Source: Kipferlia bialata
Taxonomy: Eukaryota
Assembly (NCBI GenBank): GCA_003568945.1
Contig: BDIP01000031.1
Span: 1 to 41,380, forward strand
Direction: 5' to 3'
DNA length: 41,380 nucleotides
The notes under the pieces were generated by a model. The model was given only the letters and a program-made list of their open reading frames with translations, made no database searches and had not been told where the DNA came from. Below are positions 1,293 to 41,325 of this stretch, one piece after another. Within the stretch, counting starts at the first letter, position 1. Each line of letters begins with the position of its first letter. The position numbers and the translations under genes are program-made.

Positions 1293-2725
1293 AGGTCCTG
1301 TTGAGACCCAGTGTATGTATGGCTTCGTACCCAGTGCCACTCCTGCAAATGCCCCCATGGTTGTCCTCATAGACAGGGTGGTGACAAGGGTGGAGTCCCT
1401 GGATTGAGAGTAGGGGGGGGGGGGGTATGCACACAAAGAAACATAGAGAGAGCGACATAGGGTGGTGACCAGGGTGGAGTCCCTGGGGATGAGGGTACAG
1501 GGGTATATGAAGAGAAAGAGAGAGAGAGAAACAGGCTGGTAACAGACCTGGAGACCCTGGGGGAAGGTGGGGAAATATATGGTATGGAGAAAGAGAGTTG
1601 GGGCAGGGGGAAGAGTATACACACTATCACACAGTGCATTGGTACCCACCTCACTATGAACTCGATCTCTGCCCCCACTCCATTGACATATGGGAACCGG
1701 ACGGTGTCGGCCTCATCTCCTGGGGGGTCAGGGGGTACTCATATGTATATAGATGTAGAGATAGTTATAGATCTATAATGACAATTATGTTATGGGAGGA
1801 TGGCCCATATATGGAGTTTATTGACCTTAGACGAGCTAGCCATAACACATATATGTTCTCCCCATATCAACATACACACTCGCATACCTGTCTGCTTAGC
1901 ATCGAGTTCCAGGTGGAACCCAGTGGTGAGAGTGCCGCCTGAGGGTGAGGGGGTCATATAGATAGATCATACCACATATAGTGGGCATATCCAGTCTCTA
2001 GGACTACACTCACCGTTAGACCCCGTTGCGTCCTGGAACAGAGATGGCGTGGCACCCACAGTCACTCTGCAGGGGGAGATGCCCTTGAAGACATGGCCTG
2101 GGGTGGGATTGAAGAGAGTCGTGCATATACACAAGCTAGACCTAGTGAGAGAGAGATATACCCACCTGCCGATGGCACCAGCTCGACTGATATGGATGAG
2201 TCCTCGTCTGGGACAGAGGACCCGAAGGCAACGCTGGCAGATACACTCTGAGGTGAGGGTAGTATATGGTTGCCTCCATGCTTGGGTATGTAGATTGTCC
2301 ACTATATGTACCTGTGCGTGTGCGTTGAGGCCTCCAAAGTGCACGTTGAGGAAGGGGTCAGTGTCGCTGGGGTAAGATGCACACATTTGAATACATGTAT
2401 ACAGAAAGAAACACATGTACTTATGTAGTGATTATGCGTTCGCCATTCTCTGTGGTATCCAGCGACATGATGAATACAATGTCCACTCACCTAGTTGTGA
2501 AGACACAGTCTGTAAAGCGGTACCTGGGGGTGAGAGAGAGGGAGAGAAGGGGGGATACACTCACCACTCTAACAGTGCACACTGGATATTTAGTCGATAG
2601 AGAATTTGCTTGGTAGATATACAACGACGGTCGTAACTGTACGTGGCATGAGTACCCCGTGGCCACTACGTTGCCTGTCACCTCAGTCCTCTGCCAGGCA
2701 CACTCGTGGGTCTGGAGTTAGGAGA

Positions 2726-2764
<39 letters not shown>

Positions 2765-5700
2765 GTGTGTGTGTATAGTGTATAGATCTACTTGTACTCT
2801 GTCATCTGCCAGGCACAGGAGTGGGTCTGGGGGTCAGAAGACATATGAATAGACATACATAGTCAGACCCATAATGTGTATGACAGTAGAGGGAATGCAC
2901 CCACCATACGGCCTGTATCGGGCAGTGTCTCTATGCCATCTGCAGTGACAGACAGAGAGGACGCACAGGCTGGGGTGAGAACTTCTCTGGGTGGTTATGT
3001 GTATATACGTATAAACACCCACCCCCGAACTGGTCTGGGTCTGTCCTATTGTATACCACATATATATATGTACATATATAGTATATATACCACATCTATA
3101 CTAATATCTGTGCTATATAAACTAACCCCCGAACTGGTCTGGGTCTGCCCTAATGTACACCATGTATTTATATATATATATAGTATATAAATATATATCT
3201 ATACATACACACTACATGGACTCACCCCCGAACTGGTCTGGGTCTGCCCTAACATATACCATATATATATACCACACCTATATATATATATGTCGTATAT
3301 ATATATATATACTACATGCACCCACCCCCGAACTGGTCTGGGTCTGCCCTGTCTGACACACAGTCTGTCATAGAACCGAAGAAGGAGAACTCAAGGTCAA
3401 CAGCGCCACTGGGGTTAAAGACGTACGACTACACTCAACGAAGAGATAGAAATACATGTATGCATATAGAGATGGATACAATCTTGACTCACACGAATGC
3501 TATCTGGGTTGCCGACTCCTCTGCCACCCCTAGTGATAGGGTGGACACTAGGAAGTTAGGGATGGTGGACTTGGACTCCTGGGGGTGAGGGGAAGAGGGT
3601 ATATACACACATGTATATGTTATTACATTCATATATATATGTATATATAGATATGTGGGGTAGAACCCACACAACATCCTGTCTATTCATACATGTACAT
3701 ATGTATACAATAACATCTCTATCTATCTATTTTTGTATACATATACCAGTATCTACATACCTGTATGTTGTCCTTGTAGAACCCTATCAAGAGGGAGACA
3801 GCCATGGCACCCCCAAACAGGTAGTACACCTGGGGGTGAGGGAGAGGGTATAAATAGCCCGGAAGACTAATGCAATACGTATACAATACACATCAGCTAT
3901 CCGTACCAGACTGAAGTACCCCCCTATCCTAGTCTGTCTGTTGATCACTGGTGCATGGTCATCGGTGGGGTGGTCCAGGGTAAAGCGGTCAAACCTCTCG
4001 ACGCGGATGCTGTTCCTATAGGGTGGGTATATATACATGTGTTTATGTACCAATGTGCACTGTTACACACCTGACTGGGTATGTGCACAGCAGCATAGAC
4101 TATACTGTATCCAGTATGTCTATGTATGAATATGACTGTGTGTAATACACACTGTGTATCCCATCATATATATATGTGTGTGTATATATATGTGTGTATA
4201 TCCTATCCCATATACCTGACTGGGTATGTGCACAGCAGCATTGCGGCCAGACACACACACAGCACACCGGCCACAATGTAGCACACCCTGGTCAAGGTCT
4301 GCACATAGCCTGGGGTCACAAGTGGCTGATGGGCATAGAAGTATATAACAAATATGAGTACTATATACAGATAGAGCGAGACGAAGGGTCCGCACATAGC
4401 CTGGGGTGAGAGAGGCCAAGACACATACTCTATATACTGGCATAGATACATCTATACATTCACACCCCACCTGACATCAGAGGCCGTGCTGGTGGCTGGC
4501 TCTCAGTGTCGTCCACAATCTCGGGCTCGGCTAGGGGTGAGAGAGACGACCATTGATACATCCCAGCTGACGCTGCCGTACTTGCACTAATAGTATCTTT
4601 AACAGTATGGAGAACACTGTATAGTACACACGTGTCTACATAGAATAATGCCAGGGTGTGTATCATCATATGTATCAACAGATGACACGTACTTGCGGCA
4701 CTAATGCTTCCGATGGGGCAGTACTCGTCGTCCTGGGGGTTGGATATAGAGGGAATGTATAAACTAATTGAGACAAGTGGCCAATAGTGAGAGGCAACAA
4801 TGTACATATGTATGTATATGTATACTTTGTACACACACCCACCTCACATGGCTGGCACTGGGAGTGGTCGATGGAGAGAGACCCATCCTCATTAGTGACA
4901 TAGAAGGCATGGGTGCCTGGTAGGGTGAGGGGGAGTGGCATATACACACACACACATATATATAGAATATCAACAGCCACCCACCCTCTGGGCAAGGTGT
5001 GCACTGCAGGTAGGACCTGGCCCCCAGTGTCTGTGAGTAGTACCCATCGGCACAGGTCACACAGGTGGTGTCAGAGACTGGGGGGTCAGGGAGAGACATG
5101 CAAAGATACAAACAGCTATATACATATATACAGAGACAGAGAGATATGTACCCTGACCTGACTTGTATGTGCCCATGGGACAGGGTGTGCACGTACCCCC
5201 CTCACTCTCTCCGACAAAGGAGGCGTCCCCACCCTCCATCTGCGTGTAGAAGGTACCTGGGGTCAGCGTATACAGAGACACTGTATATACGTCCTCTATG
5301 CAAACACATAGAGAAAGCACGAGTCGTACAGTATCTATATATATACATATCTATATTTTCCAATACCAATACCTGCGCTGCACGAGTCGTAGAGCACCTC
5401 CCCCTCTGTATCCCTGGCAGACACAGGTGTCAGCATGGCTGTGTACAGGTCGCTGTTGCCACTGCCCTGCATATTAGTATTAAGTGTATTGATTATAGTA
5501 GTACAAAAAATATAGTATATAGTATACCTCTATGTACTGGGTCATTGATGTCCTCCAGCCACCGTACAGGTATATCCTGTCACCATGGTACTGGTAGGCC
5601 ATGCCGGCTGGGGGGTGAGGGGGTACAAAGTAGAGAAGACACAGAGGAGCTATAGATGGAGGAGATAGAGTCGCCACTGTACATACCTAGCCCCGGGAGC

Positions 5701-8700
5701 ATGTCACCTGTACCGTCCAGACTGAAGGGTGAGGGGATAGACATAGAGGGTCAAGAAGGGGGAAGGAGAGTAGTCTGAAACAGTACAGTAGTCTGTGTGA
5801 CGGTAATAGTGTATATATACCTCAGAAACACAACAACATTAAACACAAAGACTTCCCTAGAGATGAGTAATGCGTCTCCCCCTACCTGAGCACCGTGTTC
5901 TCGATGGAGTGTATCAGTACCAGTATATATGGAGTGTATCAGTATCAATGAGATATTTCTTCTGATGATGCTATCCATCCCTACCTCAAGACCGCACTCT
6001 CTATGGAGTGCTGCGCTGGGTCTAAGGTATGGACGTATCTGTAGTTGAACACCGCACTCCACATCCTGCCCCCCAGACACAGCACGTGCCACCCGGGGTT
6101 GGTAGGGTTAGTGTCAGAGGTGGATAGGTCTGTGTCTGTAGACTCAGAGTCAGACTCCAACTCCGGGAAGGGCCACTGGGGGGTGAGATAGCACTATACT
6201 ACAAACACTGTAGAATGAGTGTATACTAGTACGACAACCACCTGCACAGGTATGGCTGCATTGTCCACTAATAGTGTATGTAGTATATAGTATACAGATA
6301 CAGGCCTTAGTATGTATATGTAGAAATTATATATAGTACCCACCTGCACAGGTATGGCTGCATTGTCTACTCCATTGTGCACCAGCTTGGGTGGGCTGTC
6401 GGCCTCATTGTCGGGACCGGCTGGGGGTTAGCACAGAGAAAATGCAGGAACAATTAATCCTGAAAGTGTATACATGTGTGTTGGGATTGGATGGGCGGTA
6501 ATGGATGGTGAATAGCATCACTGAGACGAAGTTGGACCGGTTCCCTAATAGGGAAGGATGTATATCAATCAGAGACTTCATATATACGTACCTAGGTACT
6601 GGTAGCGTCTGAACGTGACCTCATCTGGGCCCAGCTCTGGAACATCACCCTCATCTCTGTCACTACCGCCTGGAGGTGGGAAGGGTAGCACCATCAAGGT
6701 TATGGTCTCAGTGAAAGTGTCTCTTTATGAACACATATATAGAGACAGATACACGCCTGCACCTGCAGGTGGGTCAAGGGTAGTATCTCCTATACTAACA
6801 AGACATACAATAATAGACTTGTGTCTGCATATTAATGCATACCTGCCCCTGTCTCTGCCTCTCCCCACATGTCAACAGACACCTCATACCTAGGGTCAGG
6901 GGTGATACTGGGCATATTCTGATATCTAGGGATACATTATGACCAGTGCTCAGTCTCATGGGATTCTTTCCAACACAAGTTTTCCGTACCATCCGTAGTT
7001 GGGTGCGTTACTGGCCAGCACCCCTCCGTAGAGGAACATCTTGCCGTTGATGTTGTCTAGGTGACAGGTCTCCATGGCAGGGGGGGTGTTGTCAGAGACA
7101 TACGCATCATACTCTGCGTCAGTGAAGGGTAGACCAGTGTCAGAGTCGGTGGGTCTGGTGAGGGGGTTCAGGGTGAGCTCAACCCAGGTCTGGGGGTGAG
7201 GATACACTACAGGTCCGGCAGAATGTATACATATACCTAGGTATCTATGTCCACTAATCTCTATACCTTAGACCTGAGGTCGAACCTCCACACACCTAGG
7301 TTATATATACATGGTATCCTTCTGTATATCTCTCTCTATATACCTTAGACCTGAGGTCGAACCTCCACACACCTAGGTTATATATATATAGTATCCTTCT
7401 GTATACATCTCTGTACCTTAGATCTGAGGTCGAACCTCCACACCTAGGTTATATATATATAGTATCCCTATGTATACATCTCTATACCTTTGACCTGAGG
7501 TCGAACCTCCACACCTAGTTATATATATAGTATCCTTCTGTATACATACCTTTGACCTTAAGTCGAACCTCCACATGGCACTGGAGAGAGAGCTGGCTGT
7601 CCTACCTCCATAGGCATAGCTGGGGGTGGGGGGTTAGGTGTATATATATACAGGATGCTATATATATACATATACATATGTGTGTGTAAGTATACCCCAT
7701 AGGCATAGCTGGGGGTGGGTGTACATATAGAGATATACACAAACAATTATAAATAATGTCATTTATATAGATGTACCACATAGGCATAGCTGGGGGTGGG
7801 TGTTAAGATACACATATATACATAGGACAGGTACATACGGTGATACATAGACACACACGTATGTATGCACCAATATACATAGCTGGGAGGTTGTGGGCGT
7901 GAGGTCATACTATACAGAGTTGAACACACTCACATGCTGTTGTCTGCCAGCAGTGTACAGGCACTGCTCGTGGGTGGGTACACGTCCCCAGTGGTGTACT
8001 CGTTGGGGTACAGCTGCTCCCAGGTGTTGGTAGAGAGCCAGAAGACCCAGATGTCGTTGAGGAGGGCGTCTGGGGGTGAGACAAGAGAGAGTATGACTCT
8101 AGACAGTACTGACTGTACAGCTGTATACCTAACTCTGTGTCCTTGCCCAGCATCACTAGCAGGTTGCCCCCCCAGCTGTGCATAGAGTGCCTCTCCCTGG
8201 GGGTTAAAGGGATACACACACCAAGATATATCATGGGAGTATAGGGTGTGGTACAGTATCAATATCAATAGCATACAGACTTAGGTGTGCATGGAGTGCC
8301 TCTCCCTGGGGGGTGAGGGGAGAGGGGGTATACATGTCTAACAACATAGAGGTAATGGATAAGATATACACATGTAACTACATACAAGTACACACCTAGG
8401 CACCGGCAGGCTGAATGAGGGTGTGGGCACCATGGACCAGGTCTCCTCGTCCTCATCGGCATTGTCTATGCCTGGGTGGGTATATGTAGAATACATATCC
8501 ATCCATACTACAATTGTGGCTAACAGCCTGATGTATTTGCTACGTAGCTCTGTATACCTGCTGCCTCCACTCCCATGTCCAGTGTCCACAGCATGCTGGC
8601 CTGGGAGGGGGTGTCTCCCCTGGGGGTGAGTATACACATGTAATACACACATAGGTATAAACACATAGGTATATAGTGGGCTAATACCCCTGAGGGCCAG

Positions 8701-11700
8701 TGTATACATAGACACACGTGTATGGGTGTTGCATACTACACAACCCCTCCTCCCATACCTATACCCCCCAAATATGTACATGTTCTCTCCCACCACAGCT
8801 GATGCAAGGAGGGAAGACTCGGGGGGGGATATCTGGTTGCTGGGGGTGAGACACTAGCATATTGACTAATTGAGAGAGAGAGAGGGGACATGGTTGCTGG
8901 AGGTGAGATGTGTATAGATCTAGAATGTGGAAGCTTTTGGTACAATACTACACATCTCTCTGCTCTCACCTGAGCAGTATCTCGTACTCCGTTGTGACCT
9001 CCCCCCCTTCCCCTTGGACATTGACACTGCTAGACATGCAGTTGGAGGCACCCTCCAGCTCCATGTACCCACCAAAGTAGAACATGTCGGGGGAGAGGGA
9101 GGACACGGTGTCTGGGGGGAGAAGGGGAGGGAGAACGATGGGTATAATATATACACTCCAGTAGTCTAGAGTGGCATGGGAGAAATGGGCATTGAGGGAT
9201 GCCATGGGGTGTCTAACTGCACTTGATGACCGATACTGTCCCTGACATACCTGCTGTCTCCACTGTCCACTCGTGCACAGGGGGGACCATACAGTTGTCC
9301 ACTGGGGGTGAGTATAGAGGGTATGGCATAAGTATATGGGCGTGCATCACTGATGCAGGATGAGGAGGACTCGAGTGTGGTATACCGACTCTACTCGACC
9401 CAGTAGGAGTACTGAGAAGTCCAACTACCCCCTACCTCCGTCGTTAGCCACTGAGTACTTGTCGGGTGTGTTCTCAAGCACATTCCACCTCTGGGGGTGA
9501 GATACACGTGATATACAATAGGTAACCAACTCATGTTCAACTCACACACATATAGTCCATGTACCACAAATGTACACTTCACTGTACTACACCCAATCCA
9601 CATACCCAGAGTGTGGGGTCTGTGTACTCCCCGTTGAATGATAGGATGACACCGTCCCCCCTGTCCCGCTGGGCTATGCGGAACCAGCCATACCTGGGGT
9701 GGGGGGGGGTATCTTCAGGGAGGACAATGTCAATACAATAACCCCACTCCTACATAAATATCCATATATATACATATACTAATATATATACATATACCCT
9801 GCACTCACATGACGATGAGGCCATCCCGCATGAGGTACTTGTTCCTGTGCTCATACACACCCTCTTCCTCAGTCTCTGCACAGTAGAGGTCACAGTCCAG
9901 ATACACCTGGCACAGGTACCTGGGGGGAGGGGTGTATATATATATATATATATATATGGGTATACAGCATATGTGTATTCTATATGTATCTACATAGGTC
10001 AGAGTCCAGATACACCTGGCACAGGTACCTGGGGGTCAGTATAAACCAGAATATATACCCATTGTACAATTTTATACTGTATATATATGTATACACATCA
10101 GTCCAGACACCAGGTACTTGGGAGAAGGGGGGTGATATAAATACAGTAATCCACTGGTGATATACACCAGTGCATGGATATACCTTGGCCCCGGGTACTG
10201 GTCCTCCACCGACTCTGGGTCAAAGGTGGGGAAGTTCGCATTGGCCGTACCCGTAATCTCCACCCACTGTGGGTTGGGTGTGTTGAGACCAATGTCCACA
10301 ACCCACGTGTCCTGGGGGTCGGGGGTCGAGGCATAGTTGCCAATGCGGCCTGGGGGTTACTATTGGAATGTACATATAATAAAAATGAGAATATACATGA
10401 AGAGAGGTATAGCAGAGGCTGCCTTGGGAGTCACTACTAGGTGTTACATTATTCAACAGCTGATGGGCCACACAATTACAAAGTGCATATACACACTGGG
10501 TATCTATATGTATTGAACACATACATGAATACCTGAGTATATGATGAGCCACACGTGGAGGGGTATGGCCGAGGTGGGACTGGGCACAACAAGCACACCC
10601 ATGCTGGCAGCCTAGGGGGTGAGCATGCATTATTATATATATATATACATGTATACATACACCCACCAACCTCCCTAGCGCATGGGGCCTCCCCCCCAGG
10701 GGACAGCTGCTCCCAGCTGTTGTTGACAACGTCATACCGCCACAGCTCATCGATGAAGCCAGTGGGGCCTGGGTGAGATACATACATCTACACATACCTA
10801 CATATAGTGTGTACATGTACATGTGCATACCTCTCCCCCCGTAGACCAGTGCGTATGGTAGCTCCTCCCACAGGGCCTCGTTGGTGGGGTCAGAGGGGTC
10901 GACCTGATGGTGGGGGGGATGGGGTATCAGTGGTACATGTACTGTATGTTCACTCTATACCGAACTACACCATACCTTGACGTCTGTGTACACCTCACAG
11001 ACCTGTCTGTACCTGGGACCAGGCCAGTCTGGGGTGGGAGAGAGAGAGTGTGGGTGTGTACTCATAACTGGGTATGTAAAGTATTGATACACTCACCTGA
11101 CCCCCCCTCCCTCGATATCTCAGCCCAGATGGAGTTGGGTGGATCGTAGGCATACCTAGGGTCAAGGGGTAGACGGTATACATTCAGATGTATCCATAAA
11201 TCGATATGGAGAGGGAGAGAGCATACTGTCGATCACAGTCACACTCATTGTATGAATTAGTATTCAAAGGACGGGAGGTCACACTCACATCTTGGACGAT
11301 GCCCCGTTGTCTGTGAGTCCTGCAAACACATAGAACAGTCCATCATGGGTCCACCCACAGGAGTAGCCTGGAATGACAGGATGTATAGATGAGTGTACAT
11401 ATAGAAGTATTGATGGTAATGTGATATATATATATATATATATAAGTATATACCATCATGAGTCCACCCACAGGAGTAGCCTGGGGGTGAGGGGGGAGAT
11501 GCATGTACATATACATTGGATTGGCTATCCACACACCCAATACATATAGATACATATACATATAGATACATATAGAGTATGTATATAATCCTCCCTACCC
11601 ATGATGTCTGTCTGTGCCCCCAGGGTGGTATCACTCCTATCAATGTATATACATTGTATGTATAAATACACACCCGTGATATCTGGCTGTGCCCCCAGGG

Positions 11701-12690: not shown

Positions 12691-12740
12691 CTGGGGGTGG
12701 GGGGGGGGGGGATAGAGAAGGGGGGGGGGGGGGGACAGAG

Positions 12741-12901
12741 NNNNNNNNNNNNNNNNNNNNNNNNNNNNNNNNNNNNNNNNNNNNNNNNNNNNNNNNNNNN
12801 NNNNNNNNNNNNNNNNNNNNNNNNNNNNNNNNNNNNNNNNNNNNNNNNNNNNNNNNNNNNNNNNNNNNNNNNNNNNNNNNNNNNNNNNNNNNNNNNNNNN
12901 N
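12741..12901. other. Scaffold gap (161 N) flanked by G/C homopolymers
   Basis: N-run; genes A and B are both 5'-truncated at it. Confidence 0.98.
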
Positions 12902-12970
12902 CAGTGTCACTCTGTGCCTCACTCTGATTCCCCCCCCCCCCCACTCTCTCTCTCTCACTCTACTCTCACT

Positions 12971-13180
12971 CCAAGGGACTGTCTCCCTCCAGTTCCTGTT
13001 TCACTTTGTGATGTCTTCATTATTCTCCCTATCTTTCTCTCTCCCCCCCCCTTCTCATCTTCAGGGACCCTGTCTCCCTCCAGTACCTGTTCCACCATGT
13101 ACTCTCTCTCTCCCCCCCCCCTCTCTCACTCCCAGAGACCCTGTCTCCCTCCAGTACCTGTTCCACTCTGTGCTGTACAT
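12971..13180 (+). repeat. Acceptor + exon 5' start repeated: 2 echoes plus the real exon
   Basis: CTGTCTCCCTCCAGT(A/T)CCTGTT(C/T)CAC at about 12979, 13070 and 13141 (exon), each preceded by an AG. Confidence 0.93.
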
Positions 13181-13445
13181 ACCTGAGTCAGAGAGGGTGG
13201 ACTCAGAGTACTTCATGTATGCAATGTACGTTAGTAATCTCAGTATTTCTCTTCCGACTTTTTCCTCTCTGTTTCCTCTCTCTTTCCTTCCTCTCTCTTC
13301 TTCTTCTCACTTGGAGGGTCTGACGTTGTCTGCAACCTGCTAAGCTCACTTCATTCTCTCTATGTGTAATTATCTTTCTCTCTCTACCTCCTTCTAACAC
13401 ATCAGAGGCTCTGATGCTGTCTCCATCATGGATTCACTACTCTTC

Positions 13446-13486
<41 letters not shown>

Positions 13487-29800: not shown

Positions 29801-32800
29801 TCACTGCCCGGGGAATCAGGGAGAGTAATAGTGGTTTCTAGGGTCAGTCACAGCAATATACAATCACGGACCAATACTGTATCTGAGTATAACAAAGAAC
29901 ATACCAAGTGTTCCAAATCCTGTTGCACTGACAGGTACGACCATGACGCTGTTAGCTACGGGCAGCCCGAGGTAGAGGTACCCGCCGTCGACCTCAGCTG
30001 CCTCGTGTGCCCAGGGCCAGTTGGAGACCACGGTCTTGAGCATCTCTCCACCCACGAACCCGTAGGAGTGCAGCTCGGAAGTCTCACTGGATATGCCGGC
30101 ATACACTGCGACCGTGACCTCTGCATCTGAGGCTATGAGTGCACGGGCCATGTTGGCATCTGCTGCATCATAGTCAAAGGATGTGACGACAGCGTGGGAG
30201 GCAGTCATGGCATAATCGGAGCCACTGACTGTGATGGAGCTGGTGAGAGAGAGGTCAGTCACGCGTCCACCCATGAGGGTCAGAGTGTATGTGTCAGCAG
30301 TGGATGGACCCATAAGGCTGACAGAGTACCTGCCGTCCCTATGGGACTGCACAGGGTAGTAGATATCATTGAAGTGGGCAAACTGAGGGACATAGCGGTA
30401 TGGAGCATGGATGATGGTGGCTCCACTGGCGTCGGTAAGGTGGAAGGAGAGAGTGGTGTGCTCCCGTGTAGTAAGGGTCCAGGTGGAGTCTGGGACTATC
30501 GACACCGGTAGCGATGTGCCTGGGGTAGCAAGGAACGCATGTCCAGCAAACATGGTCCCTATGGCCAAAGGACTGCCAATGAGAAGATGAGCTCTGTCAA
30601 GCGAGACACTCTCTCCAAACCGGTGGAGGGGGTCGGGGTTGAGAACCCCATTGAGGAACATACCAACATCCACCACCCGCTCATAATCTCCACCCAGGCT
30701 GCTACGCGGTGTTGCAATGTGGACAACGTTGTTGGAGGTGTCAGTGCTCTCCGGGTCGTTGGTAGAGAGGGCGATGTACTGTCCGTCTGTGCTTATCCTA
30801 CTTGCCATGCCCCAGTCAATGTCTACCCCAGAACCTGATGGCTGGACATCAGCCCTGTGGTTAGGCACATGTATGATATGCTCAGTTCCTAAGAGAGACT
30901 GAATGATCTAGATTGCAGAATATTAATGAATATGTACAACCCACTAACCATACGGCAGTTGTCCCTGCCTCTACGTCCACGTCATAGCGGTATACCAGCT
31001 TGACCTCGCAGCCCAAGCACTTTGGAGAGGAGGCGAGGCCCTGGGCTCCGAGTCCGGCATACCACCCATTGCTAGCACCCTCCACCCACTGCATATATGC
31101 CCCAGTCACAGCCTCATACGTGTATGGGTATAACCTGCCACCATCCTCTCTACCAATAACTAGAGAGGTGCCAGAGGAGAAGACAATGGTGGTGACGAGG
31201 ACATCACCGTGGCTAGAGGCTAGAACAGTGGGAGCAGGGACACCGAGGTCATTGGACTCATACATCACCACTGGAGCAGCAATGGCGGCTCCGACAGCAA
31301 GACGGAACACACTGTCATCATAGTAGAGGGCGATGGTCTGGCCATACCCGGCATTCTCTGGGAGTCCAGAGAGAGCCCTTGAAGGATATAGGGTGGAATT
31401 CAGGCTGAATGTGTTGGAGTCAGTGTCCAGAGTGTAGATTAGCACTGCACTGTCGTCTGTGCCCACGGTATCGGCCTGGCCTATCACCAGTATGTCATCG
31501 GCCATCGCAAGGGATGTCCCAAACCCAGACACGCCGGAGCCCACGCCACCAGCACCTGGGTACATACTCTGTACATACACTGGGGAGGCTGATGTATCCT
31601 TATCATACCTGGAGTGAGCGACACCATTGATACTCCAACCAAATATAATTAGTGCACATTGTATAACGTACTTGAATATGTGCACTGCGTCTGTATCGGG
31701 GTCAGATATGGCCATATAGGGGAGAGTCATTGCGGTGACAGTGCCAAATGTAGAGGAGGCCTCGTATCCAGAGGGTAGGCTGTCAACCGGGACAGAACGG
31801 AGGTTGGAGAAGGGGTAGTAGGCCACTACACTCTCGGCACTGGAAGTGTAGGTGCCTGATGTGAGAACCCCCACACAATAAGCAATGTGTGAGATAATCA
31901 CTAACTTAGAGGACAGGTGTCGTCGTACCAGCTATAACCGTGATGGTTCCAACGGCATCATCCATTGTAACATCAGTACAGAACATCTTCTGATCTGCAT
32001 CATACACGGTGGAATACCAGTCGGACGCTGTGCCGACAACGTTTAAGGAAACGGAAAACGCCTGGAAAACTGGGGGTGAGAGGATTGTATTCAATAATGA
32101 ACAGTGGTTACAAATAGGTGAGATACAATACCTGGGCGGTCTGACGAGTCAACTAGAGCGACGCAGACAGGTACTGGGCTCCCAACTATCAGGGAGTCGT
32201 AGTGCAGAGTGTGATCCACTGGAGTCGAGTTAACCGAGTAGGATAGGGTCAAGTTGCCGGCGTTCACAGTGACAGTGGCTGTCGAGTCCCCGACGAGACT
32301 CATGACCGTAGTAAGGGTACACGTGTACATAAAAGTACTGGAAGTGAGAATAAGAAAGAGATACAGAACACTAGAAGTAGAGTCCTTGAACAGTAGTACC
32401 TAGAATCAAAGGAACACGAGCTCCCAATATCAATGCTGACAGTCTGCTCGGTGGTGTTGACGTGGCCGTTGACATTCAAAAGCCAAAGTTCAATGACACT
32501 GTGACCAATCATGAGTGGGTTTGCCTCCACCGAGACTGGAGACCCCTCTACAATTGAGGTAATCTGTGTGGTCCCGGAGTTCAAGTAGAGGGCACCGGCA
32601 CGCTGGGGTGAATAATTGGATAGATATACTGCAGCGCTTGGTGTCTGGATGAATGTGTCTGATGATACCTGGAGTACGGGCATGATGCTATCAGTCTGCA
32701 TAGCGGACACAGTGAGTTGGGAGTCGGGGGGTAGGTACATCGACACAGCGTATGTGCCTGAACCCTAGAGTAAGAAGAGAGAGCGAGGATGGTAATTATG

Positions 32801-35800
32801 GACAAGACGCTAGAGCTATCGTACCTCGTACACCATCACCATTCTCTCGTACTCGTAGCCTGTCACCATGGCGTAGAGAGGATACTCTCTGTCGTTGACT
32901 CCATCTGTTGTAACCACAGTGTCTGTGCTGTCATACAACCTCACTCTCACAGTCTGGTAACCAGCATAGAGTGGTGTCCCGGAGATGATCGAGTAGGACA
33001 AGTACGGGCCACTCTCGTATATGGCGACGAGGCCAGTAGTGGCTGTGGGGTAAACACCGGCATTCAGGATGACATCCCTGGATATCAGAATACCCGAGAG
33101 AGAACTATAGTCACAGTACCTGAGAGGATCCGCCCTTCTTGGGAACCCTACCACACAAATGCAAGTGGTACATATATATCTGAATATACCTATATATACC
33201 TATATATATTCAATACTATATATACATATCTGGAGTGTACCTGTACATGGCCACACTGGAGAATGCCTCGGTCGAGGCCAAGGTGGAGTCAGAGTGTGAC
33301 ACACGGACAGTGTTGTAGAATCTGTCGGTGGACCGTAGAACGTTGAAGGTGACAGAACCGGGGTCAGTGCGACCTGAGAGAGTTAGAGATACCGAGAGAC
33401 CTAGGAGTACTATAGTAAGTGAAGGAAAGAAGAGGGATACAGCCAAACCTGTGGGGCTACAGCCAATGGCGATAGTGGTACCACTCAAGGCAAGAGAGGC
33501 TCCTGAGAAGTACTGGTCTCCGCCAACTGTGCCCGTCCTGTGGTAGACGGCACTACCAGTAGAGACATCGTAGAACTGGACAAAGACGCCATATGTGGCA
33601 TCGACAATCTCTGCTACAGCCACTATGCCGCCGTCCATGGACACAGCGACACCGTGGGTGGTGACGTCTGTGCCCTGGTTGAAGGCGGTTACATAGGTCC
33701 AAGTGCCTCCAATCTTCTGGTAGAGATACGAGTCTGAAGTCAGTTGCCAGGCAAAGCGGTACCGACCCTACATCAAGGTTATACAATATATATGAATGTA
33801 TGAAGAATCAACAGGAGGATCAGTCAGAACTTACAGTAGCTGTTTGTCGCAACGACAAGTCTGTGGTGAATGGTTCCGTCATATATGTCCTCTGTGGCGA
33901 GTCTGTACCCAAAGAACTCCGTGGCGACGGACCCCTCCAGGGTACTTGTCTTGTACCAGGAGTCATAGGTGGGGAAGTACTCGTATGTCCTCACCACTCC
34001 AGTGGTAGATGCCCCACTTTCTAGATAGGCACCAACAGCAAGGAGTCTAGGGGACAGGGCGAGGCTACAGCCATACATGCCGGCGGCGCTTCCCGAGATT
34101 TCCTGATATCAGAATCACTAGTCCTAGGAGAAAGCTACACAAAAAGGACTCTACCTGTTTGCGTTTGTACTCCCCATCTTCGAGTTGGAACAACAGAACA
34201 TGGGACACAGTGTCTCCAGACAGGACACAACGGCCAACAGCGAGGTAACCATTGGACATGGCTACCTATGGTTAGGGTAAGTAATTATACTCTCGATATT
34301 GGAATGGTGAAATGGATGCATTTGTATATGAACCTGCGCTAATAAAAGTAGAAACACAAGTGCTGTAGAATCATGACACATACCTGGTATGCGATGTCAG
34401 CGGAGGGATCGCCACCAGCGACGTACACATCAAGGGACCCATACTCCTCAAAGTAATTGTTTGTCCCGGCCTTGTAGAGGGTGACACCCTCAATGGCGTC
34501 TCCTCCCACTGCGGCCCACCCCTCATCCAGTGCAGTCGTGTAGTTCCCAGAGGTCTTCTCATACTCAAAGAGGGACTGGTGCTGCTGGAGCACAACCGCT
34601 GAGTGAGTACGAAGTGAGAGATGAAAAGTGTACTAATACGGCACTCACTTTCCATCTGGAATACATCCACTGTGCTGTAATTGTTGAAGAGAGTCAGGGC
34701 TTCGGTCCCAACAGCCTCAGCCTTAACCGTATCCTCAAAGCACTGTCTAGCACCGTTCCAGGTGACAGAGGACGCAGAGCCACTAGCGAGACTGGCCTCC
34801 AACAGAGAAAGGTTCCCCTGATGTGGGCATATACATAAACGATATCAAAACACTGAAGAGAGGTCAAGAATTGACTTGAAGAGAGGAATATCCAATACAT
34901 ACCAAGTTGGCGATGCCATTCTCGTCTGTAGTGTACACGCACACATCAGTCTCTCCCAGGTAGGGCAGGCGAAGAGAGTCCACTGCAGCAGATCCAGCGG
35001 CAGACGCCTGCATGGCAACCTCAACAGGACAGAGCAGGGTCTCAGCGACTCCTATTATGAGTATGGGAATCATTAAGACTAGCACCAGTGTTATACATAG
35101 GGAAGTGCCCACCTGCCACAGCCACACTGAGGGAGTGGGTACCAGCCCCTGGGTAGTGCTGGGTCCCCTTCCACTTACAGGTGGCGGCATCGTACACCGG
35201 AGTGAACCCAGACCCAGTACCATCGGTCCACTGATGGATGAGAATACATATATCCGGATATCCTCTGCCGAACACATATAACATAGTATATACAATTACT
35301 GCTAAATACCATTGATATACTGAAACAGAACATCTCTCTTGAAAGATGTACGTACCGCAACATTGAGGGTCAGGGCACCACCGCATACTGGGTACCCTTG
35401 GGCGTTGAGGATGGTGATGTATATGTCGTCTGACATATCATACAGCATCTGATCCACGACACAGGAGGTAGGGGTGCCCACAGTGGTGACAGAGGTCTGG
35501 ATCTGATGGTGAGAGAAACCTACACGGTGTCAAACTAGTGAATGCTAGAGTACGATACTCACCTCATGTGGCTCGTTCCAGGAGGCAGCGAGGGTGGTTC
35601 CCAAGAACCCAGATACCCCAACATAGGCGGAGATGGTACCAGCCGTGTTACCAAACACTGTCCCAGTATATGCCCCCTCATCGCTGGAGTACACTAGTCC
35701 TGACTCTCTGGTAAAACCATCTACCGAGTCAAAGTGCGACACAACGGAGAGACCAGTCACAGGGGATGAAGTAGAGTCGGTGATCTCAACCGAGTAGTCA

Positions 35801-38476
35801 ATGAGACCAGGCTCTGAGGTGACGGGAGTGGCGTCAACGTACACATCGACACTCTCCAGAACAGGGAAGAAGGGGCGCCCTGTCGAGTAGAGACCACATA
35901 CTGCAACACGCTTGTTGGTATGATCAACAGCAATGTGGCGTCCAAAGTCACTGCCAACGGTATCAAAACCTGGAGGTGAGTGATCAGCACACTATAATAA
36001 CACAGTAGCAGATATTCTCAGTCGTACCTCTTGTGGTGACTGAGTAGGTCACGCTCTTGTCTGGGGATGGGGTGTATGTGACCATGCCCCTCGACACCCC
36101 TGCATACTCTTGTCCCGGAGACCCTATCAGTACTGCCCCATCGAGCAGGGCGACGGCCGCACCATACTCGATACCGTCCTTATCGAAGCTATCGAATTCA
36201 CCCCAAGAACCTGACTGCTTTTCAATGTATACCACCTCACTCAGGGTAGATGACGTTATTGTGGGTACACCTACAACCATGAAGGTGCTTGAGACAGCAA
36301 GGGAGATGTACTCCGCCTCGTACGTATCTGGGATAGGGGTCACGTAGGTCTGAGCCCATGCTCCAGCACTGTAGCCACCGGGGTAGCGCTCAAAGACACG
36401 AACACTCGACCAAACACCTCCTCCGGGGCAAGTGCTTACCGCTAGGGTAGATGCATCAGCAGAGAGGGCGAGCTTGCATCCAAACCCACCCTCCGTGGCG
36501 GCCGCTCCAGAGATTGTGTGGGAGAGAACCCAGATACCATCCTGTTGTGAGACGTTGGCAATGTGGAAACACAAAAGAGATCTGACACTACATTTATATA
36601 TAGACGGATATAGTGTATTACCTCAATACCATAGACATAAGCATTGCCGTTGCCATAACCGGGGGCTCCGACTACCATAGTATCTCCCTCCATCTCGATA
36701 GCAGTTCCAAAGAGGTCAGGCTGGGAGTGAGACTGATACTAGAACGTCTAGTGAATACTAATGTATTGTGAAAGTCTGTCACTCACCATTCCCGCTTCCC
36801 CTGGGTTCAGCGTCTGGTGCCATATCCACTGGTTGTCCCAGGTGACCTTATACACATACACGTTACCAGGGGAGAATCCCTTGGCGCCTACAGCAAGATA
36901 GACTCCATTGAAGGCAACGGCACACCCGAACTTGGAGACGGAGGACGGCGTGGACATCAAGAGGGTCTCAACCGCGTAGCTGTTGACGTTCTTGTTCATA
37001 CACTTGACGGACCCATAGCCATAGGTGCGGCCGACAATCACCCAGTCGCCATGGATGGCAAGAGAGTCAACAGGCCTGCCTGAGGTGATGTGGGCCTGTC
37101 CATACACACTGGCTAAGGGTATGGAGACTGAGGCCTCGCGCAAGGGAGCGGCATCGGTGTTGGCAGAGATGGTGGCGGTGGAGCCGGCTGTGTAGTAGAG
37201 GACGTTGAGGGAGACAGAGGACCCATGGGGTATGTGGACGGATGTGTCCGACGTGTACTGGCCGTATCCCCCATCAACACCCAGATAGATGGCAGTGGTG
37301 TCACCCTGAGGTAAGTATTGGCAGTAAATGGTAGAACAGTCCAAAAGCTAGAGATATACATAACAAATACATATCAATAACGTACCCCAGGAGCGACAGC
37401 CTGTCCGGCAACCTGGACACCAATCACGGCATCTCCATGCATGTCTTGCAGGTAGGTGAAGTGCGGCCCATACCCCGGTACATACCCGTCCCCCCACTGC
37501 AGCATGGTATCACTCCTCAGCATATCAACAGTGTTGCTGCCGGTGCCCCCACTCCGATGGTAGACTATCCCATACCCCTGCCCGTCCCCATGGGCTACAG
37601 AGGAATCGACAGTTAACCCGTAGGTCCCATAGGTCAGGTCAGTCTCCAACACGTTGTGGACCACGGCGTAGTTGTCAATGGTACTGTCCCACTTGAACAC
37701 AACCATCCTGTAGGCGTAGTTGGTAACCACGAACATGTACTCATTGTAGAGCGCAATGTAACGTCCAAACTAGCGTCAGGCTATGGAAAGTGAGTATAGG
37801 ATACCGCAAATCACTTGTAACTATATACATAAACACTGGTCGTACATAATGGTAGGTTGCTGGGTCCTTGATTGTCTGGATCGGCCCAGTCCAGTAAGGA
37901 GTGACGGAATATGACTGGTACCTGAGGGGTCAATATGGGTGAATACAACAGCAGGGGGGCAATCAGGAGTCTATATATATAAATGTGTGTGTGTGTGGCA
38001 ATGCAATATAGGTGAACAAAGGACACGTACGAGTATATGAATATGGATCCAGCGTTGGTCCTGGCGTTTGGTGCACCAATTGCAATCTTTCCATCATAGA
38101 TGGCCAGGGCATTGGCGAACCCTCTCACGCCGCCTGGTGCCGTAATGGAGTGCTCTATCCCTGGAATGTAAGAGGATGATACATTCACCGTTACACACGC
38201 ATATGTATACACTCACTCACATAGATACATCGTAGAACCTACCTGACTCATCGAAGATGTAGCACTTTCTGTCGGCGCCGTCGTTATTGACCAGGCCCAC
38301 CGCCACATGGCCCTGTATGGGATCGATGGCCACCGATGTACCGAAGTAGGTGTCAGCCTAAGAGTCAGAGGGGCTAGGAACAGCAGCACACGGCGAGAGA
38401 CGACATAGGAACAACGCAAAGGTACTGGATAGTGACTAGACATAGAGATACCGAGGAAGAGATGGCCATGACGTAT

Positions 38477-38512
<36 letters not shown>

Positions 38513-41204
38513 CCAAAATATATTGCACACATATCGACGGAGATGTCCCTGGCATGATATAAGAACCACACACACACACACAGTCGCACACATATACATA
38601 TACACATACATATATAATACTATACTATATATACTATATACTATGTACTATATACTATACTCTGTTGAATTATAGACATACCGATGGCGATGTCCCTGGC
38701 ATAATGTCCCCCAGCATGGTCATGGAATGGGAGGTAGAGTCCCAGCTGGGTGTGAGACATGGATACATGGGGATAAATGACTTAGAGACTATATATACAT
38801 TCCGTGAATCTGGGCTGAGGAATCCGAGCTGCAGTGTGGGAGACAGTGAATACATATTCACCACATTATTCAGATATATTACCTATGAAGCTACTGTACA
38901 CATCATGTGCATAGTACATAGAAGACAGAATAGCAACATTCAAAGAGAGACCAAGACCCTACCTGTACTTGGTACACTTGCCCTTGTTGGAGTCATAGCC
39001 ACTGGAACAGGAGACCATGACACTACCTGTTGTTAACAGAAACAGCATGGAGGAATAACAGAAACATATAGAAGAACAGCAATGTACAGAAACAGGCACA
39101 ACACAACACTAAACCAATTAACAAAGTGGAAATGGAAGTACGTACCTTGCATATCAATTGCTCCGCCGAATTCCGCAGCTCCAGAGGGACCGTCCACCCA
39201 TGGGTTGGTGGTGTCCATGGTCCAGGAGGTACCTGTGTCAATTATAGAAAACAGACTCGACATAGAAAAATTATCAATGAGGATACTGATACTGATAATA
39301 CTTCTTGGTCAGTCCAGGAGATACCTGCGTCATCAGTATCACATACATATACTGTATAGATACTGACACTGCCCTTACCTCCGTCATCAATACTATTGTC
39401 TCACAATAGTATATATATACTGATACACACAATTATATATACAGATTGACACTGCCCTCACCTGCGTCATCCAGATAGTACACGATGGTGGCACCAGTGC
39501 CATCACGGCCTAGGGTGAGAGAAACGTAGTGCAAAGTTAATATATGTACATATTGCACTACACGCAGACCACTAGAAACATGAGAGAGCAGAATATACCG
39601 TGTCCACTATATATAAACATATAATGAAAACAATACAGTACTATATACTATACCTGGAGCACCGACTACCAGGACCCCCTCTGCCATTGCAATATATATA
39701 TAATACAAACATAATACTAATGAATAATACTACATACTATACCTGGTGCACCGACTACCAGGACCCCATCTGTCATGGCTATGGCCTCTCCGAACCTGGC
39801 ACCTGCTACTGCACCTGGTGTCAGAATATGTATATATATATACATATATATATATACATCTATCTATCTATCTATCTATATATATATATATATATATACC
39901 ATATATTAAACCATTGATACATACGTATATATAAATATAGGGATACCTGGGTCGGTAAAGGTATCCACACAGCCCCATGCAGTGGTGTGGTGCCTGGAGT
40001 ATATCTGGACACGGCCTGTAGATGAGAGACACAAGGAATACATATATATATATATATATAAAGAGAGAGAGATAGAAGGAGAGAGAGAGAGACAGAGAGA
40101 GAGAGAAGGAGAGAGAGAGAGACAGAGAGAGAGAGAGGGAGGAAAAGAGGTTAGAACACACCTCTGCCTCCCCAAGATGGGGAGCCCAATGCTAGCCAGT
40201 CGCCCCACACGGCCATACCAAGCTGGTGTGAGAATGGTAGGGAGGGCGATGTACAATCCAAGTTAGGTAACTGATCGAAGTCTGGTAGCCTTCAGAGCTT
40301 ACCCTAGCATTCTTGACTCCCCGTCACATAGTACAAGTCTCTTTAAACACCTACCTTATGTTCGGAAACCCCGTCTGCAACCGTGCTCTCAATGGTCCTA
40401 AGGGATGTCATCTGAGTGATGCTTCTACCGTGATAGATGGGAGTCACTTCATCTCCACCCCATGACCCAATGGCATACCGGTACGGGGAGAGGGACATAC
40501 CCACCCTCACCGTGTAGCTACGTGAGGTATCGAGTACGGCAGAAGTGGCAGGGGAGTAGTGGCCCGTGTTGGCGTCGTAGGAGAGGGGTATCTCCCCGTC
40601 CTGAGAGTACCGAGATGGCAAGAGGGAGACATCTGCGTCTGTGACGTCTTCGCCTGAGGAGGTCACGGCTATCCCAATCTCTGCAGTGTCTCCATCATAT
40701 GAGGGCACGTACTGGTGGGAGACAGACACCCACTTCTCAGACAGAAGGGCATGGCCACCTGGGGGTTAGAATATGTATATACATATATATTTACTATACA
40801 CATGTATATATGTAGAGAGACAGATATCCACTTCTCAGACAGTAGGCCACCTGGGAGTGAGAACATATATTATATGTATATATAGTAGAAATATACCATC
40901 CATATACATATGTACAATATATGAATATATATGTACATACTATACAGTCTTCATATAAATATGCATATATATACCTGGCTGTGAGGTGCATGTCCCCGAT
41001 GTACATGGGAAATCTCTTATACTTATACGCAATAATATACGTATATATATATATACAATTCCATATATACATATATATATATAGGCCATCCACACCTGGC
41101 TGTGATGTGCATGTCCCAGATGTACATGGGGCTCCCATGACCACCTCCTGTGTCCATGCATCCCTCAGACCAAGGGAGACACTCCGGCCCAGCATAGACC
41201 CTGC
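26862..41204 (-). CDS. Very large multi-exon secreted/surface protein with many FG-GAP-like propeller repeats interspersed with Ig-like domains; continues beyond the window end
   Basis: Repeated FG-GAP-type motifs: LGRSVSL..VVMGAP (41096-41204), DGVLVVGAPG, FANALAIYDGKIAIGAP, FGCAVAFNGVYLAVGA, MEGDTMVVGAPG, YGAAVALLDGAVLIGSPG, FGTSLAMADDILVIG, FGESVSLDRAHLLIGSP, FGTALALDVETLAVSA, FGTSIAMSGGRLLVSSP. Long ORFs 26862-27956, 28387-29628, 29864-30868, 30882-31901. The junction checked at about 28042/27934 is in phase. No C-terminal TM seen; could be more than one gene. Confidence 0.8.
40039..40140. repeat. (AT)n followed by imperfect (GA)n microsatellite (intronic)
   Basis: Seen directly. Confidence 0.95.
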
Positions 41205-41325
41205 CTAGGAGGTTAAATAGATAGAGAGAGAGACCTAGAAAGAGAGAGACACACTCCTGCCCAGCATAGATCCAGCCTAAGAGGTAAGATATTCAGATGT
41301 ATACATACACACATATACATAGGGG

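Follow-up and report, generated by a model that had tools for sequence, protein, structure and literature searches.

What are the short copies of exon ends that lie in the introns of the free-living protist Kipferlia bialata, and do they diverge from their exons under codon constraint? The original prediction held that these copies, termed echoes, do so even though most cannot be spliced in. We addressed this question in one contig of 41,380 nt, analyzed whole (the window), to which all statistics given here apply.

Confirming that echoes are real and above chance, we found 36 of them, 9-41 nt long, at 26 junctions of three genes (Table 1). Only 0.23% of trials with unrelated exon ends reached the detection score, and wrong-end and inverted copies numbered 2 and 0 of 262, respectively; 11 second-tier gapped matches are outside all counts. 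Echoes lie on the strand of their exon, head to tail and ~95 nt from the splice junction to which they belong, in units of 50-147 nt that consist of an exon end of 20-40 nt, a splice site, and then a diverged intron stretch. Since the parent exons measure 48-157 nt, echoes are exon ends with one splice site and not whole exons. In the donor-echo arrays at exon ends 3326, 7550, and 11858, the unit extends across the exon-intron border and includes pseudo-donors. Introns in the window are microsatellite-rich and CpG-poor (0.31).

DNA contigs hold the echoes at 5370-7635, the sole stretch with both DNA and RNA-like cover. A contig of depth 484 is identical to 5370-7291 and overlapping contigs cover the 7267..7513 array, ruling out for this stretch an assembly artifact in which alleles were joined in tandem, with the qualification that the DNA run may be the window's own source and so is not independent evidence. 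Near the two short echoes at 7697..7789, a loose contig end continues into the exon ending at 7934.

The gene models matched the deposited proteins, that of g1 after two small corrections and that of g5 over the first 697 residues compared; g2 is a predicted, partial model. Echoes occupy 14 of the 50 introns of g1 (51 modelled exons, nine splice joints observed in an RNA-like contig). Those of g5 are confined to its 5' part above 37900, in 4/11 introns and the flank, against 0/27 introns below. The echo-poor control g3 holds two old gapped copies (18439-18463 and 22212-22245). The echo-bearing genes probably encode surface proteins. The whole genome has about 125,000 introns, as given in PMC5874029.

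Table 1. Genes of the window and echoes with their parent junctions (exon vs echo for codons and residues)
Feature	Gene	Position	Strand	Parent junction	Remarks
Gene KIPB_000295	g1	618..12690	-		kelch repeats, cysteine-rich stretch, membrane segments
Gene, partial model, 15 exons	g2	13136..16373	+		echoes in 4/14 introns and upstream flank
Gene, echo-poor control	g3	16629..22832	+		0/25 introns at strict threshold
Gene, kelch protein	g4	25102..26517	+		echoes in 0/4 introns
Gene KIPB_000298, 3,385 aa	g5	26919..41204	-		FG-GAP repeats
Acceptor-side echo	g1	889..917	-	exon start 802	28/29 alike; acceptor differs
Acceptor-side echo	g1	1459..1482	-	exon start 1398	CTT/CTG; older copy at 1531-1558
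Acceptor-side echo	g1	2797..2826	-	exon start 2711	E/S, R/M, one synonymous
Array, three donor-side echoes, 25 nt each	g1	3023..3250	-	exon end 3326	common junction point, three intact donors
Donor-side echo	g1	4071..4096	-	exon end 4216	26/26 alike; intron side no better than unrelated introns
Short acceptor-side echo	g1	4387..4400	-	exon start 4309	Q/R
Second-tier donor-side echo	g1	5884..5911	-	exon end 5985	7 differences, no gap, donor in register
Donor-side echo	g1	6242..6269	-	exon end 6344	GTA/GTG
Array, four donor-side echoes	g1	7267..7513	-	exon end 7550	TTA/CTC, TCA/TCT, AGG/AGA
Two short acceptor-side echoes, 12 and 11 nt	g1	7697..7789	-	exon start 7619	
Acceptor-side echo	g1	8283..8305	-	exon start 8196	TCT/TCC, S/T
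Acceptor-side echo	g1	9996..10028	-	exon start 9919	C/S; decayed gapped copy at 10099-10117
Acceptor-side echo	g1	11453..11480	-	exon start 11367	ACC/ACT
Array, three donor-side echoes	g1	11599..11808	-	exon end 11858	GAC/GAT, P/T, T/M
Acceptor-side echo	g1	12008..12027	-	exon start 11921	GAC/GAT
Decayed acceptor-side echo	g1	12275..12296	-	exon start 12189	1-nt gap, acceptor lost
Donor-side echo	g1	12537..12564	-	exon end 12637	E/Q
Two acceptor-side echoes	g2	12974..13103	+	exon start 13136	Y/F, S/F, L/M, TTC/TTT; far one with 2-nt gap
Two acceptor-side echoes	g2	13315..13431	+	exon start 13511	GAC/GAT; far one decayed, acceptor lost
Donor-side echo, 9 nt	g2	13637..13645	+	exon end 13577	
Acceptor-side echo	g2	14282..14304	+	exon start 14392	V/L, L/M
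Second-tier donor-side echo, about 45 nt	g2	15686..15730	+	exon end 15614	in frame, two adjacent replacements, GT in register
Donor-side echo	g2	15960..15981	+	exon end 15931	CTA/CTG, CCA/CCC; donor GT lost
Donor-side echo	g5	38535..38558	-	exon end 38682	three synonymous, 0 replacement; donor GT lost
Copy of spliced junction	g5	39312..39334	-	exon end 39462 joined to exon start 39232	19/20 alike; within that intron
Donor-side echo	g5	39654..39693	-	exon end 39743	three synonymous, T/A, D/E
Second-tier acceptor-side echo	g5	40817..40849	-	exon start 40758	in-frame 6-nt gap, V/I, two synonymous
Donor-side echo	g5	40975..41009	-	exon end 41096	TCT/TCG, ACA/ACC
Acceptor-side echo	g5	41245..41276	-	exon start 41204	five synonymous aligned, sixth at edge; 0 replacement

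Over the 36 echoes and 657 exon sites, with every change counted once per junction, we observed 60 exon/echo differences, 33 synonymous and 27 replacement (codon positions 12/14/34; 27 transitions and 33 transversions), which gives a pS of 0.21 and a pN of 0.054. This synonymous excess rejects neutral drift of both copies and beats a null in which only the exon is constrained only modestly (p 0.004-0.14). For the nearest echo per junction, omega was 0.20 (bootstrap 0.09-0.38; first 5 nt of the 12974 echo left out), and the exon-only null allows 0.5 at best. After trimming the far ends by 4 nt (synonymous 19.5 vs 14.5), omega was 0.26 (0.10-0.59) with p 0.055 against that null, rising up to 0.14 under stronger transition and CpG bias, so that the synonymous excess taken alone is borderline. 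The caveat raised beforehand, that drift of the exon copy alone inflates the synonymous share, thus removes most of the significance of this excess taken alone, but not all of it. CpG decay as the main cause was rejected, as it explains 3 of 28 synonymous changes.

Nearly all individual substitutions listed in the original prediction were found again. The synonymous pairs CTT/CTG (in the 1482 echo), GTA/GTG, TTA/CTC, TCA/TCT, AGG/AGA, TCT/TCC, and ACC/ACT occur in the frame given for them, as do GAC/GAT three times, CTA/CTG, CCA/CCC, GCA/GCT, TCT/TCG, and ACA/ACC. The CTG/CTA pair at 1457 lies one base past the aligned edge and is thus not in our tally, and the six of six synonymous changes claimed at 41244 became five of five for the same reason. 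D/E, E/Q, Y/F, V/L, L/M, E/S, C/S, P/T, and V/I were encountered among the replacements, and I/V and A/S were not. The claim that replacements are mostly conservative held (mean BLOSUM62 +0.32 vs -0.60, p 0.01, n=19, leaving out four codon rows that lay at an alignment edge or had been displaced by a 2-nt gap). They fell at codons that differ in a paralog in five of six cases, such codons numbering 30/96 (binomial about 0.013, calculated by hand); R/M in the 2797..2826 echo strikes a residue conserved in the paralog. Array changes private to one echo (about 6 synonymous and 8 replacement, counted by hand) are not clearly constrained, in g2 by itself synonymous changes do not exceed replacements, and gaps that shift the frame occur in old echoes.

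GT or AG was kept in 32/36 echoes, and this retention lies outside the search criterion because the echo scan was blind to intron bases. Echo acceptors differ from the used ones at 89/204 positions and yet score 7.12 vs 7.26 bits, with C-tract shifts inflating the differences and making the random-mutation null lenient for acceptors, whereas echo donors are weaker than used donors (1.47 vs 3.07 bits, p 0.007). The point changes fall in non-repeat donor and acceptor bases and remain within consensus. On the intron side, echoes are ~40% diverged (median score 10.5/40; simulated scores were 31-32 at 10% and 11-13.5 at 40% divergence). Per position, identity is mostly 0.85-1.0 on the exon side and about 0.3-0.75 on the intron side beyond the dinucleotide. 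In the array at exon end 3326, likeness between homologous units is 0.96-1.0 for the exon-like part and 0.68-0.69 for the intron part, compared with 0.54 among unrelated introns (95th percentile 0.60). Intron parts of array units are 0.52-0.69 alike in five of six arrays and 0.69-0.89 in the 7550 array. This contrast would be inflated if the microsatellite-rich introns mutate at several times the rate of exon-like sequence, as they may. In echoes, divergence is thus lowest for replacement changes, higher for synonymous changes, and highest in the intron part, and the splice consensus is retained.

We think it probable that echoes are pieces of diverged working alleles, put out of register by recombination and then decaying. 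Of the three models first offered, the one that saw in echoes the exon ends of other alleles fits best, and it gains from the identity drop at the splice junction, the kept splice consensus, the conservative replacements, and the in-frame 6-nt gap; against it, no second allele was found, and the synonymous excess alone is borderline. The 6-nt gap at 40849 and the in-register 45-nt echo at 15686 both count for this reading, as do echo lengths ending at about 41-45 nt, since single-strand annealing needs roughly 50 bp according to PMC8654963. We infer the polarity of change and the mechanism, because no donor allele or outgroup was found. Population alleles would pair only in exons, the TA-rich introns being too different. 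A break would be repaired from another haplotype, with synthesis running across the splice junction; the common exon stretch would be too short for in-register annealing, and after sealing by polymerase-theta end joining, the exon ends of the two alleles would lie next to each other, ~100 bases out of register. The echo would then offer a second pairing site, through which unequal exchange would stack units of several haplotypes into arrays. Splicing would take the outer sites, the first donor and the last acceptor, and the echo would be dead and slowly decaying, longer repeats probably being deleted again. Possible microhomology at the new junction, in overlaps of 2-4 nt, is legible by eye only at the 15960 and 7550 echoes. 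According to PMC8516963, K. bialata encodes PolQ, Spo11, Rad52, and Msh2, metamonads are without NHEJ, and in fornicates Dmc1 is present twice and Rad51A is missing; crossovers favor exons in the hypervariable fungus Schizophyllum commune (PMC4209137). Allelic origin would require an allelic synonymous divergence of at least 0.2 in K. bialata.

An unlikely alternative, although the one that survives best, is sister-chromatid tandem duplication across the splice junction, with an echo neutral from birth, an exon drifting synonymously, and slippage diverging the intron part. Such duplications are widespread and mostly neutral, according to PMC13167724, and they would account for the head-to-tail geometry, the unit sizes, the alikeness of intron parts in the 7550 array, the TA-richness of echo introns ((TA)4 in 18/22 vs 19/109 others), and a synonymous excess that is borderline after trimming. 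Yet a pN of 0.054 caps neutral divergence, which would hold pS and intron divergence to at most about 0.11, and we observed 0.21 and about 0.4. Copies born identical should also diverge evenly along the unit, which was not seen in echoes: 11 of the 17 echoes at least 95% alike on the exon side had an intron side not above unrelated introns, and exon-side and intron-side identity were uncorrelated (rho -0.08). Splice-site changes that stay in consensus at non-repeat bases and conservative replacements likewise argue against duplication between sisters.

Ectopic repair could instead have copied exon ends of close paralogs that are now lost or unassembled. Such donors would give the same codon and splice-site signals, and kelch and FG-GAP genes form families; we nonetheless consider this improbable. 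The one paralog found (P0002, 55% identity) was rejected as donor, the echo residue equaling that of the paralog at 0/6 testable sites, and there was no close paralog among proteins or, at 85% likeness over 5370-7635, in DNA contigs. No echo matched any other exon of the window above 75%, up to four versions occur at one junction, and three unrelated genes are affected. Apart from the gene's own protein, a representative protein search returned only a match of 32% at the level of repeats. P0001 and P0003 each form a cluster of one. Relatives in metagenomes were not found with P0001 (0/15 stretches confirmed) or a g5 exon (0/55), nor did a protein search with the g5 exon confirm any of 896 candidates. 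DNA contigs over 5370-7635 showed one version and no other letters that would mark a second allele; a 44-nt contig (depth 11) that deviates by 5 letters at 7452-7486 was not used.

The second model first offered, a variant reservoir in which old duplications stay similar through local gene conversion or reversible collapse, is more doubtful still. To build arrays with one common junction, exchange must recur inside the exon-like part, and exchange between exon ends and echoes is likely part of array growth; the probable surface location of the proteins would also suit a reservoir, which itself found no direct support. Conversion with neutral decay would yield no larger synonymous excess than the exon-only null and would not keep echo splice sites distinct from those in use, and collapse frequent enough for selection would be expected to homogenize intron parts, which is not so. 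No collapsed form was present among DNA contigs at 5370-7635, contigs being apt to drop rare forms. A DNA joint at 6752-7536 was rejected as a collapse, its short side having only 22 letters and the contig running on unlike.

Present use, whether as micro-exons or, as in the third model, through DNA- or RNA-level deletion between repeats that puts echo sequence into mRNA, is very improbable despite mostly intact splice sites, since a 4,322-nt spliced contig takes outer sites at four echo junctions with 0/8 echoes included and no echo letters, both deposited proteins (g1 and g5) leave echoes out, and echo-site use would shift the frame or add a stop in 33/36, as the original prediction held for most, leaving 3/36 that could extend the exon in frame without a stop. 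That contig, which is RNA-like by its splice joints and not by its record and in which rare isoforms would be hidden, skips six donor echoes at three junctions (5884..5911, 6242..6269, and the 7267..7513 array). The 27-nt echo 11480-11454 is flanked by a strong acceptor and GT and is possibly an in-frame micro-exon, judging from its sequence; the deposited model leaves it out. Recursive splicing was rejected, with only 2/14 acceptor-side exons starting with GT. Introner-type mobile introns were not seen in the window, where unrelated intron ends of echo-rich genes average 3.7 and 5.9 of 40. Nor did 131 introns show birth by duplication, with a start like the next exon start and an end like the previous exon end (p 0.49 and 0.15, respectively, vs other junctions); the junction copy 39334-39312, a single case, could be a birth mark of intron gain by tandem duplication.

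We found no description of Kipferlia echoes or codon-constrained intronic exon ends in the literature searched, which mostly did not cover subscription journals. Tandemly duplicated mutually exclusive exons are likewise copied into the neighboring intron and diverge with many synonymous changes, but these are whole exons with both sites that are spliced in, whereas echoes are exon ends with one site that were skipped at the four junctions covered. Intron gain by tandem duplication at AG/GT, which also touches splice signals, reportedly makes a new intron from exon sequence; in Kipferlia, existing introns lengthen.

The 37-bp VNTR in human F7 intron 7 (PMC1557585) resembles echoes in that the first unit spans the exon-intron border and intact downstream donor copies remain unused, the most upstream donor winning; that is one minisatellite with identical donor copies, in contrast to 26 junctions in 41 kb with both donor and acceptor sides. 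Kipferlia units, unlike those of F7, are strongly diverged in the intron part with codon-like constraint in the exon part. Duplications from failed SDSA and polymerase theta (PMC8654963) likewise place a break-adjacent copy head to tail, from about 100 bp; these arose from a sister template in repair mutants and were born identical, whereas Kipferlia copies look like different working alleles. In K. bialata, PolQ is present and classical NHEJ absent, as expected for failed SDSA sealed by polymerase theta (taken from PMC8516963, not from window sequence). Microhomology-mediated tandem duplications (PMC13167724) are also short, local, direct, reversible, and depleted from coding sequence, but are neutral identical copies without a tie to splice junctions or allelic divergence. 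In S. commune, strongly diverged alleles recombine only within conserved exons, matching the premise of allelic origin; those were in-register crossovers in a cross, and the abstract of PMC4209137 mentions no out-of-register leftovers.

Echoes are a trap for gene predictors, and our initial gene model took several as exons. Sex or parasex in fornicates and other free-living protists is inferred and rarely seen; to our knowledge, K. bialata is known from a single-haplotype genome, and we know of no observed sex. If echoes are allele fragments, hidden sex would be readable from a single genome: one assembly would yield thousands of exon-allele pairs, with which outcrossing and allelic divergence could be tested directly, as could balancing selection on surface proteins. 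Allelic origin would also reveal a way for introns to grow that is peculiar to highly polymorphic genomes, and it would offer a natural test of how intact donors and acceptors that compete for splicing are ignored by a reduced spliceosome. More tentatively, K. bialata may be a hyperdiverse recombining population whose introns are stacked archives of earlier alleles, laid down through frequent out-of-register repair, with the same process driving intron growth and turnover. Allelic diversity, amino acid polymorphism, intron presence-absence, and exchange rates would then be readable from one haploid assembly.

Echoes, short same-strand intronic copies of an adjacent exon end with its splice site, were located by sliding each exon end along its own adjacent intron in a junction-anchored, ungapped scan that was blind to codons and intron bases. 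Among 131 introns plus two flanks, 133 segments in all, we detected 36 echoes at 26 junctions in 24 of the segments, with 19 on the donor side and 17 on the acceptor side, lengths of 9 to 41 nt (median, 26), and spacings of 50 to 147 nt (median, 95.5). Unrelated exon ends met the detection score in 0.23% of trials, and wrong-end and inverted exon copies were found in only 2 and 0 of 262 trials, respectively. Echoes are a real, dense, and odd feature. They occurred in 14 of 50 g1 introns, 4 of 14 g2 introns, and 4 of 11 upstream g5 introns; the ungapped scan found none in the remaining 27 g5 introns, the 25 g3 introns, or the 4 g4 introns. Echo introns were longer (median of about 250 nt versus 75 to 120 nt for others), and TA runs were more frequent in them. 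A gapped search yielded 11 further weaker or older matches (second-tier echoes), which were left out of every count.

The window is a eukaryotic contig rich in introns, and the K. bialata genome is reported to contain 124,912 introns (PMC5874029). When proteins were searched with one exon, the single match was Kipferlia bialata KIPB_000295 (g1); KIPB_000298 (g5) is a second gene of the window with a deposited protein. Spliced models of five genes came from a small, window-trained gene finder, and those of g2 and g3 are predictions. With echo-derived exons taken out by hand, the g1 model equaled the deposited protein apart from an additional exon of 27 nt and a border of 18 nt, which were then corrected, and the g5 model agreed over the 697 residues compared. 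At the modelled introns as a whole, AG closes 66% of exons and G opens 56% of the next ones, and the observed/expected intron CpG ratio is 0.31. The K. bialata spliceosome, and a fused branch point and acceptor in relatives, are described in PMC6679479.

Features of the window, with forward-strand coordinates
Feature	Position	Strand	Description
g1	618-12690	-	KIPB_000295; kelch repeats
g2	13136-16373	+	
g3	16629-22832	+	
g4	25102-26517	+	Kelch repeats
g5	26919-41204	-	KIPB_000298; FG-GAP repeats
Assembly gap	1158-1244		32 nt identical on both sides, so the count of short acceptor repeats may be too high or too low here
Assembly gap	12741-12901		First exon of g1 appears to lie across it
Array at 3325	3023-3250	-	Three donor-side units with the same starting exon base and three different donors, all intact; likeness 0.96-1.0 in the exon-like parts and 0.68-0.69 in the intron parts, which are homologous
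Four-copy array	7267-7513	-	
Exon-like stretch	6763-6789	-	27 nt, in frame, from gene-finder model; no echo of neighbor exon; missing from deposited protein, bypassed in spliced contig
Echo	11454-11480	-	27 nt; acceptor stronger than that of used exon, GT behind; a possible micro-exon, in frame, that would repeat eight residues; skipped by deposited model
Coding-like stretches	12300-12480	-	In 447-nt intron; acceptor-like sites, then coding-like sequence unlike both flanking exons; may be very old echoes
Second-tier echo	15686		45-nt copy, in register
Coding-like region	23000-24700	-	Between g3 and g4; GC-richer, with signals resembling splice sites; a further gene is probable
Spliced-junction copy	39312-39334	-	Two flanking exons' junction, 19/20 alike, within their own intron; may come from an intronless allele or an RNA template or be the birth mark of an AG|GT-duplication intron
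Further donor echo	39364-39388		
Second-tier echo	40849		In-frame 6-nt gap

The original prediction held that echoes diverge from their exons under codon constraint. In an unpolarised exon-versus-echo tally that took each difference once per junction, 657 sites held 60 differences, of which 33 were synonymous and 27 were replacements (pS, 0.21; pN, 0.054), and 34 lay at third codon positions. Against a null with neutral change in both copies, constraint was supported (p of about 1e-6). Against an exon-only null, the fair comparison and the one called for with the original prediction, in which the exon is fully constrained and the echo neutral and which permits a synonymous share of 0.38 to 0.47 and an omega of 0.5, the result (p of 0.004 to 0.14) is suggestive and by itself not decisive. 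The nearest echo per junction gave an omega of 0.20 (bootstrap, 0.09 to 0.38; p = 0.004, or 0.017 if transitions and CpG sites are strongly favored), removal of 4 nt from the far ends gave 0.26 (0.10 to 0.59; p = 0.055, up to 0.14), and distal echoes gave 0.29 (0.14 to 0.70). Of the three genes, g5 showed the strongest synonymous signal and g1 a weaker one; g2 showed none. CpG decay, an anticipated caveat, accounts for 3 of 28 synonymous changes (CpG transitions). With four edge or shifted rows dropped, the 19 replacements left were conservative (mean BLOSUM62 of +0.32 versus -0.60 when single changes are placed at random in those codons; p = 0.01).

GT or AG was preserved in register in 32 of 36 echoes. 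Echo and used acceptors differed at 89 of 204 positions yet scored at an equal level (7.12 versus 7.26 bits); donors differed at 37 of 95 positions, with echo donors (1.47 bits) scoring below used donors (3.07) and above random intronic GTs (-0.94). Exon-echo identity dropped right at the splice junction. Where introns are rich in TA and C, slippage can inflate all intron-side contrasts, in which the median echo score was 10.5 of 40 (about 40% divergence) versus 3.7 and 5.9 for unrelated introns, and 11 of 17 echoes at least 95% alike on the exon side had an intron side indistinguishable from unrelated introns. Divergence that is lowest for replacement, higher for synonymous, and highest for intron positions, with the splice consensus kept, is the picture of two working gene copies. 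Judged by their sequence, the second-tier echoes at 40849 and 15686 look like working alleles. Decayed echoes have frameshifting gaps (12296, 10117, 12974, and 22212) or a lost splice site (13315, 15981, and 38535).

This pattern favors the proposal that echoes are exon ends of other alleles, an origin we consider moderately probable, although protein, metagenome, and DNA-contig searches turned up neither a donor allele nor a second isolate or close relative. The main rival, duplication from the sister combined with very rapid mutation of introns, seems unlikely, as pN between neutral sister copies would hold pS and intron divergence alike to about 0.11, well below the values observed. Lost paralogs are possible but less likely donors of echoes. 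The sole paralog found (55% identity) shares 66 of 96 echo-covered codons, and 5 of 6 replacements fall on variable codons; at none of the 6 did the echo residue equal the paralog residue. An R/M replacement falls on a conserved residue, showing echo decay. Exon duplication with alternative use was set aside for echoes, general intron gain by duplication was rejected (p of 0.49 and 0.15 over 131 introns), and no Introner family was found within the window.

A DNA contig at a depth of 484 was identical to the window over 5370-7291, and the DNA run may itself be the window's source. Overlapping DNA contigs spanned the four-copy array, with a piece fitting two places at double depth. Over 5370-7635, no other letters were listed for a second allele in the DNA contigs, which can hide one. 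In a second run, with contigs judged RNA-like by their spliced joints, one 4,322-nt contig contained nine splice joints, all as in the model. Joints 7550-7189, 6344-6175, and 5985-5721 bypass six donor-side echoes, and a loose end at 7619 continues into the exon ending at 7934, bypassing two acceptor-side echoes. The eight bypassed echoes and the presence of exon letters only, with echo letters absent, in this one contig argue against deletion between repeats carrying echo sequence into mRNA. That most echoes cannot be spliced in was borne out, since for 33 of the 36 echoes splicing at the echo site would break the frame or introduce a stop.

With an allelic origin, the greater part of an echo's history would have passed in another haplotype, where it was a working exon end, and a shorter time would have followed as dead intron. 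Alleles this diverged could pair in exons only, and pairing between very different alleles is reported as limited to exons in Schizophyllum commune (PMC4209137). Repair of a break would take the other haplotype as its template, and synthesis would run across the splice junction; less than about 45 nt of exon shared with the far end would make in-register annealing impossible, and polymerase theta would seal the ends, leaving a duplication in which either the echo or the used copy may be the newcomer. In C. elegans, failed SDSA with polymerase theta joining is described as yielding a duplication, with an annealing limit near 50 bp (PMC8654963). PolQ, Spo11, Rad52, and Msh2 are listed as present in K. 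bialata (PMC8516963 supplement), and NHEJ is reported to be absent from metamonads and two Dmc1 paralogs to be in use in fornicates (PMC8516963). Because arrays share one junction, later unequal exchange between exon end and echo is implied, and each such exchange would place another haplotype's donor in first position. That the last acceptor wins may reflect exon definition or the decay of mis-spliced transcripts. The first donor wins splicing, as at the human F7 VNTR, where the first donor is reportedly used (PMC1557585).

Echoes work like a failed-repair tandem duplication and look like an F7-type junction repeat, whereas the copies in both systems are near-identical along the unit and echoes are diverged. 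The searched passages of the K. bialata genome paper contain no such repeats (PMC5874029), and literature searches, with most matches judged from listings, returned no description of codon-constrained echoes. In the echo-rich parts of the window (600-16400 and 37900-41380), exons are short (median of about 72 to 74 nt), introns are long and rich in TA, and acceptors are rich in C, in sharp contrast to the echo-poor middle (16500-37900), with its longer exons and short, plain introns. This contrast may mark recombination-hot domains.
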